From Candidatus Thorarchaeota archaeon (GTDB taxonomy: Archaea; Asgardarchaeota; Thorarchaeia; Thorarchaeales; Thorarchaeaceae), in assembly GCA_008080745.1 (NCBI GenBank), contig SHMX01000001.1, positions 159,359 through 223,358 on the forward strand: a stretch of 64,000 nucleotides of DNA, given 5' to 3'. Positions 4,773 through 47,489 of this stretch are shown in pieces. The notes under the pieces were generated by a model that searched no databases, was not told where the DNA came from, and saw nothing but the letters and a program-made list of their open reading frames with translations. The stretch's first letter is position 1. The number at the start of each line of letters is the position of its first letter. The position numbers and the translations under genes were made by a program.

Positions 4773-5195
4773 TTACTCTTCCCCTTTCTTTATTGCTTCT
4801 CTCACATAGGAACCAAAGTCTGATGTTTCTCCATCTCGATGGACACGGATTTTGGGTCCTTCGCCCTTTATCTGTCGTTCAATGTACCGAATATCTAACT
4901 GCTTGATTGTTTGCCGAAATCCTCGATATACAATAAGATAAAGAAGAATCTCTTCTATCCGTTTAGCTACATCAGGTTCAGTCTTAGCAAGGCCCTCAAG
5001 ATATTGAACTGCATCAGGAGCTGTGAAACGTTTGAGAAGCCGATCGCGTTCATTCTGAACTTTTTCGGCGTGTTCTCGCTTCTCTTTAGCTTCTTTCTCT
5101 TTAGCCATCATTTTGGCCATTTTCTTTCTACGAATCAGAGCCAATTCTGAATCATCATCAGTCAAGCTAGGAACCTCGTAATCAAACCCCTGCAA
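4773..5195 (-). CDS. PDCD5/TFAR19-like dsDNA-binding protein
   Basis: 140 aa; Lys/Glu-rich N-terminus followed by a helical core (AVQYLEGLAKTEPDVAKRIEEILLYL...IKQLDIRYIERQIKG) matching the archaeal PDCD5 pattern. Confidence 0.5.
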   Translation of the reverse strand: MQGFDYEVPSLTDDDSELALIRRKKMAKMMAKEKEAKEKREHAEKVQNERDRLLKRFTAPDAVQYLEGLAKTEPDVAKRIEEILLYLIVYRGFRQTIKQLDIRYIERQIKGEGPKIRVHRDGETSDFGSYVREAIKKGEE

Positions 5196-5297
5196 ATACT
5201 TGTTAAGCTTACCGATACAGCGAGAATTGGTTTTTTAGGGCTTGGTGTTATTGAGTGAATAGATATACTGTTAGGTTATCTTCAAGGGGTTGAAAAA

Positions 5298-29401: not shown

Positions 29402-30205
29402 TTACTCTAAATCTTCGATGTCAACAATGCCATCTATACGTTTTGGAAATCCAAATCGCAAAAACATTATTGCAAAAAGACCTAACTGAACGAGTAGTAC
29501 GATGGGAACGACAAAACCAATTCCGCCAAGAACTAATGCAATGATCCCTTCAATCTGTCCATAACCTAGGTACTCTTGTAGAATTAAGAGTGATATGCCG
29601 AAAAAGACGGTGGTAAGTCCACCCAGCATCATTATAGTAAATCTAACAAGGAGATATCCAAAAATTTCAGAGTATACAATTAGTCCGGTTTCAGAATCAT
29701 AGTAAATTGGGTTACTACCGATTGAATTCAACCAGATTGCAGATCCTAAAAGAAGAGCTCCAGTTACAACCGAGAGAATACCAGTTAGAAGACCTATTCC
29801 TTCGTTATAATTTCTAGATACTGCAATAAACCCAATCGAAGAACCGAGAAAACCAATTGATAGTACAAAAAATGAATTTACTACCCACATGTAGTCTATG
29901 TTACAATAGAAATAGAATGCAACAGCCTCCCAAGTGGGTGAGAAAAATCTCGGCAGCCATCCAGATGATACAACAAGACTGAGAATTGGAAGAGTCAGCA
30001 AAATAGCAACCAAAGGGCCAATAGCGCCTATTTTGAATAAAATGGGACTAAATGTCTGTTTACTTTCTTCCACAGTTTGTCGTGCACAGGTTTTGTGTGC
30101 AATCCAGTCATTATATCTTACAATATCAGATTTCGCAATAGACTTCCCGCAAAAAATGCATGTCGCAGCAGTCTTTTTGTCCGAATCAACGGAGTCTTGA
30201 ACCAT
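29402..30205 (-). CDS. membrane protein with N-terminal zinc-ribbon
   Basis: 267 aa; CIFCGKSI...HKTCARQ followed by about 6 hydrophobic helices. Confidence 0.5.
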   Translation of the reverse strand: MVQDSVDSDKKTAATCIFCGKSIAKSDIVRYNDWIAHKTCARQTVEESKQTFSPILFKIGAIGPLVAILLTLPILSLVVSSGWLPRFFSPTWEAVAFYFYCNIDYMWVVNSFFVLSIGFLGSSIGFIAVSRNYNEGIGLLTGILSVVTGALLLGSAIWLNSIGSNPIYYDSETGLIVYSEIFGYLLVRFTIMMLGGLTTVFFGISLLILQEYLGYGQIEGIIALVLGGIGFVVPIVLLVQLGLFAIMFLRFGFPKRIDGIVDIEDLE

Positions 30206-33655: not shown

Positions 33656-33887
33656 CTGCTATAACTCCATCCCAAGAGTCTTCACGTTCATTCGAATTCA
33701 TACTTTGTTATAATTGCTATGCTAATGGCTAATATGAAAGAGAATTGTTGGAAAAATTCGAGCTTCTTAATATAACCGAGTAATACTAGGTATCAAATTT
33801 ACGTATGACCCAGAGAATATCTAGCGAATATGGACGTATCTTACCAAAAATACAGGGGTAAGATAACAAATTTGCGGAGAGGAAAAA

Positions 33888-34028
33888 ATGAAACTTGTAA
33901 CACTACACTGCCCATCACAATATCTGGAGGGTTTAGAGAAGCTTGTTGAGAGTGGCCTCTATCCTAACAGATCTGAGGCTATTCGAATTGCAATTCGAGA
34001 CCTATTGAAGAGAGAATTATGGGGTTAA
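33888..34028 (+). CDS. ribbon-helix-helix (CopG/Arc family) transcriptional regulator, 46 aa
   Basis: Not in the ORF track (below 60 aa); MKLVTLHCPSQYLEGLEKLVESGLYPNRSEAIRIAIRDLLKRELWG matches the RHH strand plus SRSEAIR helix signature; weak hairpin and T-run follow at 34028..34044. Confidence 0.6.
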   Translation: MKLVTLHCPSQYLEGLEKLVESGLYPNRSEAIRIAIRDLLKRELWG

Positions 34029-34194
34029 AGGCATTTTTTGCCTTCCCCATTTGTCTTTTCATATTAACGGCCAAGGAAGTTTAATATTCATTCATATCAG
34101 CTCTGATTCTTAGAGAGGATGAAAACCCTCCAATTGTGCATTGAGGACAGACATAAAAGCAGAGGTTTCCGATTTGAAAGTGGGTTCGTCCCTT

Positions 34195-35133
34195 ATGGCA
34201 TCAATGGATGATGACGACAAGGGATTAGTGAAAGGTTGTCCATGCTACAAAGAATTTGGGAAGGACCAAGTTTGCGTGAACAACGACGATGTCCAACCAG
34301 TTAGTACTATAATTGTAGACCCTACATTTTTCCCAGCTGATTCCGTTGAAGATCTTGAGGAATTTAAAAGCGATAACGAGAGCATGTGTTATCTTTTGAT
34401 TTATTTAGACGATACATCAGACACTGCTTATTGTGTTAGTCAGGGAAAACGAATCAAGATCAACAATCGGCCTGTACGAGCATCGGACATTCGAGAAGCA
34501 CTTCAATTTGTGACAGCAACCGAAAAGGCAGGTTCAGGTGTCATATGCTCCACTTGTCTCTACAAGTACCTTGTGACTATGGGAGATGTGTTCGAGGACC
34601 TTCTTAATGAAACAGAAAGAGCCAAAGTAATTTCGGAATATATACAGAAAATTGCAGCCAAAATGGCGGTAGATATGACGAATGCTACTGAAGAGCAAAT
34701 GGCTGATAAAGAAAGCTATAATCAACATCTAAAAGAATACATCAAACAACTCATAAACATCAGAAGTGAATGGTCTTCACTAATATTTCTATATCAGAAA
34801 AAGGATACGAATCAAGACCTTCTAGATCTAATGGAACAGTATCGTACTTTATCCCGTCTTGAGGGTATTTTTCTATTCCAAGTCCTTACTTTGCGAGATG
34901 CTACTGATGAGCTTGTAGCATTAGGCCTATTACGATTCATGATTGAAGTTGCAGAAAAGGTAGTAAAGGTTATTGATGATATTAGAGATGGACATTTGAA
35001 AATCCAGCCGCTAAAGAAAATACCAACAGATATCAAAGAGATGCTGAAGGAAGAGAATAGCCGAAGAATGACAATAGAACAGAGATTTACTAATGTTCTA
35101 AAAGTATTGAGCCAAGTAGATGTTGGAGCCTAA
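34195..35133 (+). CDS. hypothetical Cys-motif protein, paralog 1
   Basis: GCPCYKEFGKDQVCVNNDD...CVSQG...VICSTCLYKYL; the ORF track begins at an upstream TTG (34141), so the first ATG is used here. Confidence 0.5.
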   Translation: MASMDDDDKGLVKGCPCYKEFGKDQVCVNNDDVQPVSTIIVDPTFFPADSVEDLEEFKSDNESMCYLLIYLDDTSDTAYCVSQGKRIKINNRPVRASDIREALQFVTATEKAGSGVICSTCLYKYLVTMGDVFEDLLNETERAKVISEYIQKIAAKMAVDMTNATEEQMADKESYNQHLKEYIKQLINIRSEWSSLIFLYQKKDTNQDLLDLMEQYRTLSRLEGIFLFQVLTLRDATDELVALGLLRFMIEVAEKVVKVIDDIRDGHLKIQPLKKIPTDIKEMLKEENSRRMTIEQRFTNVLKVLSQVDVGA

Positions 35134-35198
35134 AAATCAACAATAAGAACACCTATTAGAATTAGTATCCATTTTGAAATTGATTAGTTAATGGGGCA

Positions 35199-36176
35199 GT
35201 GCCAATCTTGTTAGAAAGCCAAAAATCCACAGAACAGCAAGGTGAAATCAGACTTGTAAGAGGGTGCCCTTGCTTCAAGGTTTTTGGCGATGAGAAACTA
35301 TGTGTCAATGATGATGAGATATTAGAAGTAGATGCGATTGAAGTTCATCCATCTCTCTTTGCATTTCACTCCAATCGTGAAGGGATGAAACAAGAGATGG
35401 CAAAAGAGGATAATGTATGCTATTGTGCCATATATATCAACTACCCAGATAACAAAGTCTATTGTATATCCCAAGGATGGGTGCTAAGAATTCATGGAAA
35501 GGATGTTCCTGGAACAGACTTAGAAGATGCGCTCCAATTTCTATCGACAAAAGACATGGATGCTAGTGCTGAAATCTGCTCTGAATGTCTCTATAAATTT
35601 CTCCTCACACTAAGTGACATATTTGCTGACATGATGAGTAAGAAAGAAAAGACGGATGAGATTAAGCGTTATGTAGATAAATTCTCCCTCATGATTGCAG
35701 TTAAGCACAGTCAGATGGAGGGCATGAAACCTATTGGTACTGAAGATGACATAGAAGAGGGTGTTGATCATTTTGGTTTTCTTAGAGAATATCTAGTCCA
35801 ATTAATAAATCAACAGAAAGCATGGTCTCAGCGTGCGGAAAATACTGATGACACGGATATAGGAGAATGGAAACAAAAACTCTTCAAGATGCGAGAGAAA
35901 CTTGCTCGGTTGGAATTCCAATTCTACAGTCAGACCCTACAATTACGTGATATCAATGATTTCCACCTTCTCATCAAAATGCTGGAGTATATCCTTCATT
36001 CATCTGATGAGATACTAAATCTGAATGAAGAAATTCACTCTGAAATAAGAAGTAAGCAATTTCAGGAACTTGTCGATGATGATGAACAGCTTGCTTCCTT
36101 GTCTGAGTATGCAGAGAAGAGCCGAACTGTTGAACATAATTTTGGAAACATTCTTCAAATTCTCAGCCGACTCTAA
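35199..36176 (+). CDS. hypothetical Cys-motif protein, paralog 2
   Basis: GCPCFKVFGDEKLCVNDDE...CISQG...EICSECLYKFL, collinear with paralog 1; GTG start. Confidence 0.5.
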   Translation: MPILLESQKSTEQQGEIRLVRGCPCFKVFGDEKLCVNDDEILEVDAIEVHPSLFAFHSNREGMKQEMAKEDNVCYCAIYINYPDNKVYCISQGWVLRIHGKDVPGTDLEDALQFLSTKDMDASAEICSECLYKFLLTLSDIFADMMSKKEKTDEIKRYVDKFSLMIAVKHSQMEGMKPIGTEDDIEEGVDHFGFLREYLVQLINQQKAWSQRAENTDDTDIGEWKQKLFKMREKLARLEFQFYSQTLQLRDINDFHLLIKMLEYILHSSDEILNLNEEIHSEIRSKQFQELVDDDEQLASLSEYAEKSRTVEHNFGNILQILSRL

Positions 36177-43595: not shown

Positions 43596-46500
43596 TTATT
43601 TCGTTGGACGAATTATTTGGGGACCAACTATATCATGGAAGAGCTCTAGATAGGAAGAATCACTAGATAGCAAACTAAAGGGCTCATCAGAGTCTGTACC
43701 TAAGAGTATAATTTTATTGTCAGCAACCGCCATTAATGGAACATCTTGGGAATAGATAATCCTCCAACCCGGCAGTTCTTCAATACTGGGTTCACCATCT
43801 TCGGGTAAGGGAATGATCAATATCTTTCTTCGAGGTTTGGAAATCTTGGAAATCTTCTTTAGGTCTAAATCACCAGGATTTGGACTTGCAATCACTATTG
43901 ATTCTTCAGCTTGATTAGCCAGAGCTAGTATCTGTGAATAAATTGCCTCTTTTCCTTTGATATACCAAGTCTTACCAGATTGTGATAGAATTTCTCGACT
44001 GGCTTTTTGGATAACCTCAAGACTCTCAATCGATTTCTCTGTTACTGATTTCACACTCTCGAATGATGAATCTAAATTCTTCTGAAAATCAGTGTATTGT
44101 TTCTCCAGCTTGGTCACCCACCTTCTGATTGATTTATCCATCTCGGTGCTCATAGCTGTCAATACTTCGGACCTAGTTTGTTTCAGTTCTGAAGTTGTTT
44201 CTGTCATGACTGTGTTAGTCGTGGCTGTCGTTTCATTAATCTCAATATTCTTTGTAGCCACGTCAGCACGGATAGATTCCATTAATTCATAGGATTTTGT
44301 ACTCACATCAGTTTTTAATTCAACACCAAGGGACTCAAATTTCCTCGAAGCTTGCTGATTGGCAACAAGAACATTTTGACGAGTTTTATCAAGTATGTCA
44401 TCACAATTGGATCGCAGTTTCTTAGCAGTTCTCTCAAGGAGAGTAGTTATTTCATCATGGGCTGATTCCAACGAGAGGGAATAATCATGAAGTGAAGTAT
44501 TCAGTTCCGAGTTAGCTTCGGAATGAACCGCAGCTACTCCCTTCTTTATCGATTTTGTAGCTTCTTCAACACCAACTTTTGCACTCTCTGGCATAGCATC
44601 AATGGACTCCTTAACTCGCTCTAGAGCTGTTGCAACCATTGATTCAAAGTCCGTAGCTTGTGAACGAAGCTTCGATTCAGTTTTATCAAATAGACCAATA
44701 CTCATAGCTTCTAGTTTTTCAATAGTTTCATCACCCTTCGATAGTATATTCTCGGTTGCCTGTTCAGAAGTTTTGGAAAGTTGTTGTTGGACCAAGGTAA
44801 GCTCATTATCCAATTTACTTCCGAGAGCGGTAAGCGATGACTCTACATTAGAAACTGCAGATTCAACCCAGACAGAGGCAGCGTCGAAGGCTAAAGCAAC
44901 TTCGTTCTTTCTGGTTTCTAAAGTCTTCATGATATCCTCCTTAGACTTGCTTCTTGCTTTCACAGCTTTTGATTCCGCTTCCGTGATTGAACTTTGATAG
45001 TTTTCAAGACGTTCAGAGGATACCCTCGCTCTTGCACTGTATAGTGCATCCAGTTTCTTACTAGTTTCAGCTAGTGTTCTCTGTTTGGCATCACTTTGAG
45101 ATGAAAGGAATGACTCTGCCTTTGTTTTGATAGCACCAGTTGATTTGGTAATGAAAGTCTTGGCATCATCACGTGCACCCCCAATCCTTTCAACCACAGT
45201 ATCCCTACCACTACTGATTGAAGCATTGAACTCTCGAGATACCTGAGTAAGATTTTCTCCAAGCTGCCGAATTGTGCCACTGCTCATCTCTCTTAATGAC
45301 TCAGCAGTTGTGATCATTGATTGTTCAAGATTATCTATAGCGGTGTTAACCATTGAGGTAATTGAAGTACGCTTCTCAGAGCTCACCGTCTGAAGTGTTT
45401 CTCGAATCTCCTCCGCATGTTCAGCTACTTCATCAACTCGACTCTGTAATTGTATTGTGTACTCCTCTTGTATTTTGAGTGAATCGGATTCTAGGGAGGA
45501 AATCTCTGTTCTAATAGCATTCTTAAATTCGGTATGAGCTGAACCAATAAGATCAGTTGCTTCCAAGGTCTGACTAGAAATTAAGGCATTGAAAGACGAC
45601 TCTGTGCTCTGGGTTAGAGTGATGAATTGACGAGTTATCTCTTCAAGTTTGACATGGAATTCCTCCTGGATCCCTTTCGCCATTCGCTCTATTCGTCCCG
45701 TCTGATCTTCAATGGTGGAATCAATTTCTTTTTGAATCCGAGTAGCATGGCTAGTTAAGGTTGACACACTCTGAGCGAGTCTTTCATTCAGAGTTGTCCC
45801 AAGTTCTTGGTAGAGTGTCTTCGTGACATCTACCTGTGTCTTTGTAGTAGTTGCAAAATCGTTTATGATATCTGTAAATGTACTCTCAAGAGAGGACTCA
45901 AACTCTGTAGACATAAGTTTTGCATCAGAAAGAATTGCTTCACTTTGACTTGCTGATTTAGATATAATGCTGTCAAATGCAGTCTTTAGTCGACTATTCA
46001 TATTAGTAACAAGAGAATTAAATTCTGACGATTCTGTATCAAGAACTTGAGAGATTTCATCTACAGCACCAGTTAGTTTCTTCTCAATTTCTTCTCCGGC
46101 AATTGAAGCCCAATCATCAATATCAGCATTGAGTGTTTCACCATCTTCCTGTATTCTAGCATCATCAGCTTCAAGTTGGCCTTGTAGTAGGGAGAGTATG
46201 GAATTCCGCACCTCGCTGACATGAACATCGAAATCTGAATTAATCGATTTTGCAAAAGATTTCAAGCGGGCAAATTCATCACTCAGAAATCCACTCGCCT
46301 TGTCAAAATAGGTATTCACCGAGGTTCGAATAACTTCATGATAAGAATCGTCAGTGTCAGACACCTGTTCAAGTTGAGCGGTGACAGACTGATTTGCAAC
46401 CTCCATAAATCCTGTCACTTCTTTCTTCCAAGCTGAAATGTCACTTAGGACTGAAATAGTAGCGTCAATTGCAGTCTGAATTTCATGCTGAACGTGTTCT

Positions 46501-47489
46501 GCTTGTTCACGAGGAATCTCTTTAGCACTTTCAAGCATGCCATCAAGAGACTCCTTCGCACCGAGGTAGGATTCACCTAGAGTACTATCAAACTCACTAA
46601 GACTGGTTTTCAAATCTGAGATGAGTTGGTTTAGCTGTTTTACGCTTTTCTTTGAGATATCTGTCGATTTTGCAAGTACTACCTTTACAATTTCTTTTGA
46701 TGCATCATCAAGAGCTCCCTCTGATTCTGATAGTGCTTCGTTTATTGATGACCTAATTTGCTCTACTAATTCAGCTATCTTGTTGCTTACACCATCTATC
46801 GAATCTGAAACGGAGGTGGTCTCATCATTAAGCCAATCATCGAATTCGGTGGCAATCTCATCGGTGGATTCGATTAATTGTTTTTGGCTGGCATCTAATG
46901 ACTTCTGCAATTCTGACAATAAAACTCCTAGGCGATTGTCCAATCCAGTATCGATTTCTGTAAGTACAGTTTCTAGCTGTTCAACCAAAGAATTGAGAAC
47001 ATTAGTTACAGTTCCAGATATCTCTTCAATCTGGTCACGAACAGTAGTAACCATCTCGTTTTCATATTCGTCTAAAGCATTGGTTACTTTGAGATCTCGT
47101 TCTTTATGAGACTCGAGTAAATTCTGGGCAAGTGAGCTTGTTGTTTTTTCTTGCTCACCAATGACATTTTCAGAAACCTCTTTGATTGAGGAAAATTCGT
47201 CAAGCATCTCTTGGAGAGATGATACCACCATCGTATCAAGGGGTACAGCCCGATAAACCGGAATTACACCCTCTAGCTCTACCACATAACCTTTCTCAAT
47301 CAATTTCTTCAGTGTTGATTTTACTTTTGAGGTCTTTTCACCAATTAATAGAGCTACTCCCTCAGCAGTAATATTACCACTCGCAAGTATGGGATAAAGC
47401 ACAGAAGCTTCAAGTTTGGTGAGACCAAGATTGGATTTCAATACAGGAACAGTTTCAGTCATCAAATTGCCACTCACTACTAATACCAC
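43596..47489 (-). CDS. giant (1297-aa) protein: N-terminal TrmB-like winged helix, about 1000-aa Ser/Thr/Glu-rich helical (coiled-coil-like) region, C-terminal globular domain
   Basis: N-terminus LTKLEASVLYPILASGNITAEGVALLIGEKTSKVKSTLKKLIEKGYV is helix-turn-helix-like; long helical low-complexity core; C-terminal about 130 aa (WYIKGKEAIYSQILALANQAEESIVIA...) is not low complexity. Confidence 0.6.
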   Translation of the reverse strand: MVLVVSGNLMTETVPVLKSNLGLTKLEASVLYPILASGNITAEGVALLIGEKTSKVKSTLKKLIEKGYVVELEGVIPVYRAVPLDTMVVSSLQEMLDEFSSIKEVSENVIGEQEKTTSSLAQNLLESHKERDLKVTNALDEYENEMVTTVRDQIEEISGTVTNVLNSLVEQLETVLTEIDTGLDNRLGVLLSELQKSLDASQKQLIESTDEIATEFDDWLNDETTSVSDSIDGVSNKIAELVEQIRSSINEALSESEGALDDASKEIVKVVLAKSTDISKKSVKQLNQLISDLKTSLSEFDSTLGESYLGAKESLDGMLESAKEIPREQAEHVQHEIQTAIDATISVLSDISAWKKEVTGFMEVANQSVTAQLEQVSDTDDSYHEVIRTSVNTYFDKASGFLSDEFARLKSFAKSINSDFDVHVSEVRNSILSLLQGQLEADDARIQEDGETLNADIDDWASIAGEEIEKKLTGAVDEISQVLDTESSEFNSLVTNMNSRLKTAFDSIISKSASQSEAILSDAKLMSTEFESSLESTFTDIINDFATTTKTQVDVTKTLYQELGTTLNERLAQSVSTLTSHATRIQKEIDSTIEDQTGRIERMAKGIQEEFHVKLEEITRQFITLTQSTESSFNALISSQTLEATDLIGSAHTEFKNAIRTEISSLESDSLKIQEEYTIQLQSRVDEVAEHAEEIRETLQTVSSEKRTSITSMVNTAIDNLEQSMITTAESLREMSSGTIRQLGENLTQVSREFNASISSGRDTVVERIGGARDDAKTFITKSTGAIKTKAESFLSSQSDAKQRTLAETSKKLDALYSARARVSSERLENYQSSITEAESKAVKARSKSKEDIMKTLETRKNEVALAFDAASVWVESAVSNVESSLTALGSKLDNELTLVQQQLSKTSEQATENILSKGDETIEKLEAMSIGLFDKTESKLRSQATDFESMVATALERVKESIDAMPESAKVGVEEATKSIKKGVAAVHSEANSELNTSLHDYSLSLESAHDEITTLLERTAKKLRSNCDDILDKTRQNVLVANQQASRKFESLGVELKTDVSTKSYELMESIRADVATKNIEINETTATTNTVMTETTSELKQTRSEVLTAMSTEMDKSIRRWVTKLEKQYTDFQKNLDSSFESVKSVTEKSIESLEVIQKASREILSQSGKTWYIKGKEAIYSQILALANQAEESIVIASPNPGDLDLKKISKISKPRRKILIIPLPEDGEPSIEELPGWRIIYSQDVPLMAVADNKIILLGTDSDEPFSLLSSDSSYLELFHDIVGPQIIRPTK

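Follow-up and report, generated by a model that had tools for sequence, protein, structure and literature searches.

A core Thorarchaeota locus encoding a CdrS/aCcr1-like ribbon–helix–helix protein and two paralogous cysteine-domain proteins

Organization of the locus

Three consecutive genes on the forward strand of a Candidatus Thorarchaeota contig (SHMX01000001.1, assembly GCA_008080745.1) are the subject of this report. The first encodes a ribbon–helix–helix (RHH) protein of 46 aa. The second and third encode paralogous proteins with a common cysteine signature, here called A and B. The genes lie within a stretch of 64,000 nucleotides (contig positions 159,359 to 223,358), which is termed the window; all coordinates without a locus name refer to it. 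The original prediction, made from the sequence of the window, regarded the trio as a possible accessory module of regulator and duplicated effectors. All three open reading frames (ORFs) were found where it had placed them. The RHH assignment holds, as the protein belongs to the RHH_1/CopG superfamily (PF01402; residues 4–42, E = 1.2e-9, 38.2 bits against a gathering score of 20.5). The proposed paralogy of A and B is borne out by pairwise alignment: BLASTP gives 30% identity over 308 aa in collinear order, and at E = 1e-53 the similarity is far above chance. The features of the locus are as follows.

33767–33775, forward strand: TATA-like element (TTAATATAA) read from the sequence, putative promoter element of the RHH gene
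33779–33787, forward strand: 9-bp palindrome AGTAATACT, aCcr1-box-like candidate operator of the RHH gene (box scan and match to the literature motif)
33788–33812, forward strand: conserved leader block (…ATCAAATTTACGTATGAC…); across loci, ATCATATT and CGTATGAC rank with the best-conserved 8-mers ahead of the RHH gene
33837–33865, forward strand: hairpin with a 9-bp stem (RNA fold) in the lineage-specific insertion of about 52 nt in the RHH leader
33888–34028, forward strand: RHH gene, 46 aa, CdrS/aCcr1-like (Pfam RHH_1, NCBIfam CdrS)
34020–34060, forward strand: hairpin and T-rich tract past the RHH stop codon (RNA fold), terminator-like, putative function
34074–34088, forward strand: BRE/TATA-like element (AGGAAGTTTAATATT) read from the sequence, candidate promoter of A and B
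34180–35133, forward strand: paralog A, 317 aa from GTG 34180, cysteine domain and helical domain (ORF, BLASTP, ortholog alignment)
35208–36176, forward strand: paralog B, 322 aa from TTG 35208, cysteine domain and helical domain (ORF, BLASTP, AlphaFold 2 model)
35241–35633, forward strand: cysteine-rich N-terminal domain of B, residues 15–145 of the ORF that begins at 35199 (invariant residues, AlphaFold 2 model)
35634–36173, forward strand: helical-bundle C-terminal domain of B

The ORF of paralog A extends from 34141 to 35133 and offers TTG 34141 and ATG 34195 as alternative starts, the latter being used in the public gene call P0121. Translation is likely to begin at GTG 34180 (MGSSLMAS...), which matches orthologs beginning MGLDSS.... 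The ORF of paralog B spans 35199–36176, with GTG 35199 as an alternative start; the public call uses TTG 35208.

Conservation and inheritance in Thorarchaeota

A scan for the RHH gene in one genome per species returned 53 loci, all of Thorarchaeota type; the scan patterns are specific to close relatives. The RHH protein is 85–100% identical over these loci. RHH, A and B follow one another in this order on a single strand in 45 of the 53 species-level genomes (tblastn). Among the other eight, the sequence ends in five, a run of N lies inside A in one, and two (L023 and L027) carry A only and represent true absences of B. Orthologs of A and B bear adjacent locus tags in many Thorarchaeota metagenome-assembled genomes (MAGs); one Candidatus Thorarchaeota MAG encodes BAJATHORv1_10180, which has the same sequence as the B of the window (100% identity). 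Compared with the window proteins, median identity is 87% for RHH, 69% for B and 43% for A, beside 48% to 82% for neighbouring enzymes. B is as conserved as housekeeping enzymes and is the constrained subunit; A is the fast-evolving one. Because of this distribution, synteny and level of identity, the locus is regarded as core and vertically inherited in Thorarchaeota.

The view of the locus as an accessory cassette, in which an RHH antitoxin or repressor accompanies A and B as duplicated effectors, is contradicted by these data. Several features are of the kind that such a view would expect: a small RHH gene stands upstream of larger genes of unknown function, the RHH protein matches the ParD antitoxin model of NCBIfam weakly (22 bits against a cut-off of 46.2), related RHH proteins occur on archaeal plasmids, and the GC content is slightly lower at 34–36 kb (0.383 against about 0.41). 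The locus nevertheless occupies the same place in essentially all Thorarchaeota sampled. RHH, A and B have no match in PADLOC-DB at E <= 1, PHROGs returned no matches, and no homologs of A or B were found in IMG/VR, PLSDB or GenBank phages. An Rfam scan and a repeat search of the locus found nothing, and neither an integrase nor repeats nor a tRNA boundary was seen. Pfam and NCBIfam identified no toxin domain, and the core distribution and the spacer of 150–380 nt between RHH and A, with its terminator-like element, differ from the overlapping genes of type II toxin–antitoxin pairs. An origin as a toxin–antitoxin, defence or plasmid module is rejected on the core distribution and the empty searches of mobile-element and defence collections, and the accessory cassette is highly implausible.

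The RHH protein and its known relatives

The best NCBIfam match of the RHH protein is to CdrS (NF058555; E = 6.4e-15), at a score of 54.9 bits that lies below the equivalog cut-off of 100 bits. The alignment covers model positions 1–41 of 61 and the full length of the window protein; the next model, NikR, follows at E = 2.9e-5. The aCcr1 family model (NF053762) gives 18.8 bits against a cut-off of 60. A link to this second family comes from a virus. Of 50,697 virus records only one gives a match, a 58-aa protein encoded by Sulfolobus monocaudavirus SMV3, which is 42% identical to the window protein over 45 aa (pairwise E = 2e-10) and itself exceeds the aCcr1 cut-off (69.2 against 60). Two cell-cycle regulators of the RHH type have been described in archaea, CdrS and aCcr1 (PMC7439475, PMC8406309, PMC9976878, PMC9976892), and no archaeal cell-cycle regulators outside their clade are known to have been described so far. 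Judged by its sequence, the window protein is a new Asgard member of the clade that contains both.

The window protein resembles aCcr1 of Sulfolobales in being a small, single-domain RHH protein. Two of the three DNA-contact residues of aCcr1 (R2, K7 and R27) have counterparts in K2 and R28 of the window protein, which differs in having H7 where aCcr1 has K7. It also differs in its host, an Asgard archaeon, and in its length of 46 aa rather than 58. With antitoxins of the CopG, ParD and RelB types and with plasmid repressors it has in common the RHH_1 fold and a small size, and probably also autoregulation by way of a palindromic operator. It is set apart from these by the lack of a toxin partner in a core, vertically inherited locus that is absent from mobile-element collections, and by antitoxin models scoring it far lower than CdrS does.

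A second RHH gene in tandem with the first is present in about 15 Thorarchaeota genomes (L012, L018, L024, L034–L036, L039–L042, L044, L051, L054, L060 and L062). The copies are 73–89% identical to the window protein, as in L042:4998–5141 and 5148–5288. The second copy of L042 scores 20 bits with the aCcr1 family model.

A conserved box at the RHH promoter

In all 53 loci, conservation extends over about 70 nt ahead of the RHH gene. The core of this block is the palindrome AGTAWTACT, which is present with at most one mismatch in every one of them. The box usually lies at −57 to −59 relative to the RHH start codon. Nine loci, the window included, have an insertion of about 52 nt that moves it to about −103 to −121, and in three further loci it lies at −121 or −190. 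Exact copies are concentrated at the conserved position, with 33 there against three in the rest of about 450 kb of locus sequence, and the box at 33779–33787 is the sole exact match within the window. It lies 4–6 nt 3′ of a TATA-like element, which reads TTAATATAA in the window and TTGAATAT in most other Thorarchaeota loci.

This motif matches the aCcr1-box A(T/G)G(A)TA(G)A(T/G)TACN (PMC9976878) and the aCcr1 binding motif AGTATTA (PMC9976892). The aCcr1-box of Sulfolobales was defined experimentally by electrophoretic mobility shift assay and chromatin immunoprecipitation; mutation of the motif abolishes aCcr1 binding at the cdvA promoter, and a box position just downstream of the TATA element was linked to repression (PMC9976878, PMC9976892). 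The authors of the aCcr1 work have called the symmetric CdrS motif similar to the aCcr1-box. The likeness to aCcr1 thus extends from the motif itself (AGTAATACN, or AGTATTA) to its placement between TATA-like element and start codon, the geometry reported for cdvA repression, and this box geometry of the aCcr1 family was found at the RHH gene's own promoter in 53 of 53 loci. Because the promoter box matches the aCcr1-box and sits just downstream of a TATA-like element, autorepression of the RHH gene via AGTAWTACT is likely. A difference from aCcr1 is that the box was detected solely at the promoter of the regulator gene itself, and the analysis revealed no target of the cdvA kind. Scans of other promoters in the available sequences, including those of the clusters of stand-alone cysteine domain and Mre11/Rad50-like genes described below, did not recover it.

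The insertion of about 52 nt between promoter block and RHH start (within 33813–33887 in the window; also L011, L037, L038, L043, L046, L052, L053 and L055) differs in sequence by lineage. Each inserted leader contains an inverted repeat of 7–9 bp, read by eye, and the insertions look like compensatory change in a 5′-leader hairpin. The outgroup L066 has a single A/B-like gene and no RHH. In its intergenic region L066:5805–6000, a TATA-like element is followed by TGTAATACA, a box-like palindrome, then by about 60 nt and a strong hairpin with a T-run. The region could represent what is left of an RHH unit, or else a small RNA; taken alone, the box match is not significant.

The RHH–A spacer and transcription units

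The original prediction gave the RHH gene its own terminator. In favour of this claim, the RHH stop codon is embedded in a hairpin at 34020–34049 (−15.7 kcal/mol, z = −2.6), which is followed by the T-rich tract TTTGTCTTTTC; against it, a generic terminator scanner did not flag the hairpin. In many other Thorarchaeota lineages the last RHH codons (TGGGG) pair with a downstream CCCCA. The fold is followed by a T-run of at least four in a related group of 14 loci (with the window, 15 of 52 sequences), in which a second hairpin is followed by T5.

Two mutually exclusive pairings were seen in the first 50 nt or so past the RHH stop codon of L015, L016, L021, L022, L028, L032, L047, L048, L057–L059 and L061. 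In one, the last RHH codons TGTGGGG pair with CCCCACA. In the other, a GGAGC(cccacaa)GCTCC hairpin forms and is followed by T5. These could, speculatively, constitute a translation-sensitive terminator or antiterminator.

The spacer between RHH and A measures 150–380 nt across loci. Most loci contain in it a GAAAC(C/T)TTGATAT or TTTAATAT element resembling the BRE/TATA-like element of the window, and no terminator-like signal was found between A and B. Two transcription units, RHH alone and A with B, are the simplest reading of this arrangement, with A and B probably transcribed together from a separate promoter. In many loci inverted repeats include the TATA-like element of the A promoter or directly follow it, for instance in L016, L021, L023, L049 and L058. 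Examples are CTCTTAT-N13-15-ATAAGAG, CATATTCATGAATATG and CTTGATATCT-N12-AGATATCAAG; the sequence varies by clade, but remains symmetrical. Such repeats could serve a different factor as operator or form a stem of the 5′ untranslated region.

The layout invites comparison with that of CdrS in Haloarchaea, likewise a very small, highly conserved RHH protein whose gene immediately precedes larger genes of the same orientation. RHH genes of the CdrS/aCcr1 clade adjoin cell-division genes in other archaea, as in cdrS-ftsZ2 (PMC7439475). The Haloferax cdrS and ftsZ2 genes are separated by 2 nt and are co-transcribed. By contrast, about 150 nt with a hairpin, a T-tract and a separate promoter-like element intervene between RHH and A in the window. 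The genes downstream are A and B rather than FtsZ, there is no ftsZ2 synteny, and no tubulin/FtsZ signature was detected in the 64-kb window.

Paralogs A and B

Each paralog consists of a domain of about 120 aa with six invariant cysteines, followed by a helical bundle of about 190 aa. Over 50 aligned homologs, five cysteines never vary (C35, C74, C89, C127 and C130), and two more, C23 and C25, are present in at least 90% (B numbering). The invariant residues of the wider family are C-P, C, C, C, CxxC and Y. The cysteine motifs that had been read from the two sequences were all recovered (GCPC[YF]K.FG...C.N.DD, YC[VI]SQG and ICS.CLYK[YF]L) and are conserved among the 50 homologs. An AlphaFold 2 model of B (pLDDT 81) combines a beta-rich N-terminal domain with five long C-terminal helices, in agreement with the helical C-terminal half that had been anticipated.

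The description of the cysteine domain as unfamiliar also withstood profile and structure searches. A and B have no match in Pfam, NCBIfam or PDB sequences by single-sequence or profile search. The cysteine domain has no significant profile or structural match to known zinc-binding folds (zinc ribbon, treble clef, ArfGAP, Mss4-like and others), and no fold match was returned for its model, which does not prove a new fold because the model of this N-terminal domain is only of moderate confidence (pLDDT 77). A short local match to DUF4428 around CxxCLYK is below threshold. The CPC knuckle in a beta-hairpin and the CxxC at a helix N-terminus recall zinc-ribbon, treble-clef and Rad50 zinc-hook sites; the cysteine domain differs from these in the distribution of its six invariant cysteines along some 110 residues. 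TFIIB/Brf1, the automatic JGI name of the B ortholog P0077, found no support when checked against the TFIIB architecture of a zinc ribbon and two cyclin-fold repeats.

An exhaustive profile search of 1.84 billion proteins yielded only 64 matching cluster representatives, and all that are named belong to Thorarchaeota or other Asgard archaea. On these comparisons A and B appear as an uncharacterized cysteine-domain family of two ancient paralogs. Since the cysteines are invariant across the wider family, the domain probably holds a metal site, either zinc or iron–sulphur. Since A and B are fixed as a pair, the two proteins would most likely form a heteromer.

The cysteine domain elsewhere in Asgard archaea

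The cysteine domain also exists on its own, in proteins of about 132–152 aa. One stand-alone subfamily is represented by 12 loci in a metagenome scan. In 11 of these, and in L071 and L072, the gene adjoins genes for an Mre11-like phosphoesterase (358 aa) and a Rad50-head-like ATPase (428 aa, with a short coiled coil and no CxxC hook) on the same strand. Two gene orders occur, domain–Mre11–Rad50 and Mre11–Rad50–domain. In L004 the domain gene is followed by genes for a LigD 3′-phosphoesterase-domain protein and endonuclease V. The Mre11/Rad50-like context is the best functional lead, and it points towards DNA-end or chromosome machinery; the proteins concerned are paralogs of A and B, not A and B themselves. 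The cluster at L072:3119–6003, found also in L071 and L074–L084, lies next to a conserved pyridine-nucleotide oxidoreductase gene.

In other proteins the domain is part of a fusion. One homolog is joined to a thioredoxin/KaiB-like domain. In P0286 the partner is an Arf-family GTPase (PF00025, E = 1.2e-43); this fusion is one continuous ORF on two independent contigs, and P0287 represents a second cluster of the same architecture. Arf fusions with the cysteine domain at the C-terminus were observed at L002:146–1159, L003:119–1132 and L006:9705–10726 of an unclassified Asgard lineage, where the ORF of L006 is split by a frameshift. Such intact fusions would suit a small-GTPase partner module, that is, an effector or a domain resembling a GTPase-activating protein or guanine nucleotide exchange factor, and would place A and B in Arf-like signalling or membrane remodelling. 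This alternative is distinctly improbable. The fusion occurs in only two clusters, no GTPase gene lies in the window or beside the stand-alone genes examined, and structural comparison revealed no resemblance of the domain to ArfGAP, Sec7, longin or roadblock domains. Nor is such a domain described in the publications on Asgard Arf proteins that were searched.

Other genes in the window

Two further genes of the window merit mention. An ORF of 1297 aa at 43596–47489 on the reverse strand recurs as a conserved neighbour of the locus across other Thorarchaeota, and the orthologs have precomputed Pfam matches to TrmB and, weakly, to an apolipoprotein-like, long helical family, so that it would be an unusually large TrmB-domain protein. 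At 29402–30205, also on the reverse strand, a predicted membrane protein of 267 aa contains an N-terminal CxxC...HxxC segment, which matches the C-terminal zinc finger of Vps39 weakly (E = 0.002, below cut-off).

A model for the locus and its alternatives

The explanation that is tentatively favoured describes a core Thorarchaeota locus of two units, in which an autorepressing RHH protein of the CdrS/aCcr1 clade accompanies a metal-dependent heteromer of A and B linked to the chromosome or the cell cycle. The proposed mechanism has the following steps. (i) The RHH protein would bind AGTAWTACT as a dimer or tetramer just downstream of its own TATA-like element. (ii) Binding would repress transcription of the RHH gene, in the geometry that has been established experimentally for aCcr1 in Sulfolobales. 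(iii) A and B would be expressed as a second unit from a separate promoter, and the paralogs would pair as a heteromer. (iv) The heteromer may act as a metal-dependent protein- or DNA-interaction module in processes linked to the chromosome or the cell cycle. Such a role is the most likely one for A and B by association, because they adjoin an RHH protein of cell-cycle type and because the stand-alone domain is linked to Mre11/Rad50-like genes. The original interpretation stands in part: its accessory-cassette component is wrong, and control of A and B by the RHH protein is a putative link.

Several observations weigh against this model. In addition to the scores below both family cut-offs, RHH proteins 45–52% identical to that of the window are encoded on archaeal plasmids; the clade is therefore not exclusively devoted to the cell cycle and is broader than CdrS and aCcr1. 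The fusion to an Arf-family GTPase does not readily fit a DNA-linked role. No recurrent box exists at the A promoter, where matches with at most one mismatch occur in six of about 50 spacers at scattered positions, and the upstream regions of RHH and A have no k-mer in common. A common operator for the two promoters was considered and dropped, since k-mer sharing and box scans gave nothing consistent. The entire neighbourhood, including genes for a nitroreductase, ACS, YkgJ and an aminotransferase, is syntenic in Thorarchaeota, and the adjacency of RHH to A and B is therefore weak evidence of a functional link. In L066 and L067, from a related lineage, a single homolog about 30% identical to A and B alike fills the same syntenic slot, between ACS and epimerase/YkgJ, and no RHH gene accompanies it. 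The divergent homologs of L065 and L068 sit elsewhere, likewise without RHH. For these reasons the RHH association is limited to the clade that carries the duplication.

The synteny and the single outgroup homolog are what would be expected if the adjacency were merely inherited. A and B would then be independent cytosolic proteins of metal or redox function, perhaps in DNA repair, as for the stand-alone paralog, in redox sensing or in iron–sulphur handling, and the RHH protein would regulate other genes. The hairpin and T-tract past RHH, the BRE/TATA-like element belonging to A and the irregular occurrence of the box at the A promoter agree with this explanation, as do the thioredoxin/KaiB-like fusion and the thioredoxin genes that flank the trio in some genomes. 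Conversely, the RHH–A–B order is never interrupted in the 45 genomes although the flanking genes change, RHH genes of the same clade adjoin cell-division genes elsewhere (PMC7439475), and regulation could act via a non-canonical site. Inherited synteny is on balance somewhat unlikely as the whole explanation.

The favoured two-unit model can be extended to a broader proposal, which is unlikely as it stands. The six-cysteine domain would be an Asgard-specific metal module that serves Mre11/Rad50-like, Arf and thioredoxin-like machines. A and B would be its Thorarchaeota version, a chromosome-segregation or division factor within the RHH regulon, and the AGTAWTACT code would predate the split between Asgard archaea and Thermoproteota.

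Implications for Asgard biology

Asgard archaea are the closest prokaryotic relatives of eukaryotes, and to our knowledge almost nothing is known about the control of their cell cycle. A regulator of the aCcr1/CdrS type together with an intact aCcr1-box in Thorarchaeota would provide a concrete handle on this process. Scanning for the box in complete Asgard genomes would allow a cell-cycle regulon to be predicted, and the protein–DNA pair is testable in vitro without culture. Should the links between the three genes prove to be synteny only, a suspected accessory cassette would still have been cleanly reassigned to the core loci. A and B, with their cysteine domain, represent an uncharacterized, phylum-wide and strongly constrained family whose associations point to chromosome or membrane biology, and they are a reasonable target for structural and biochemical work.

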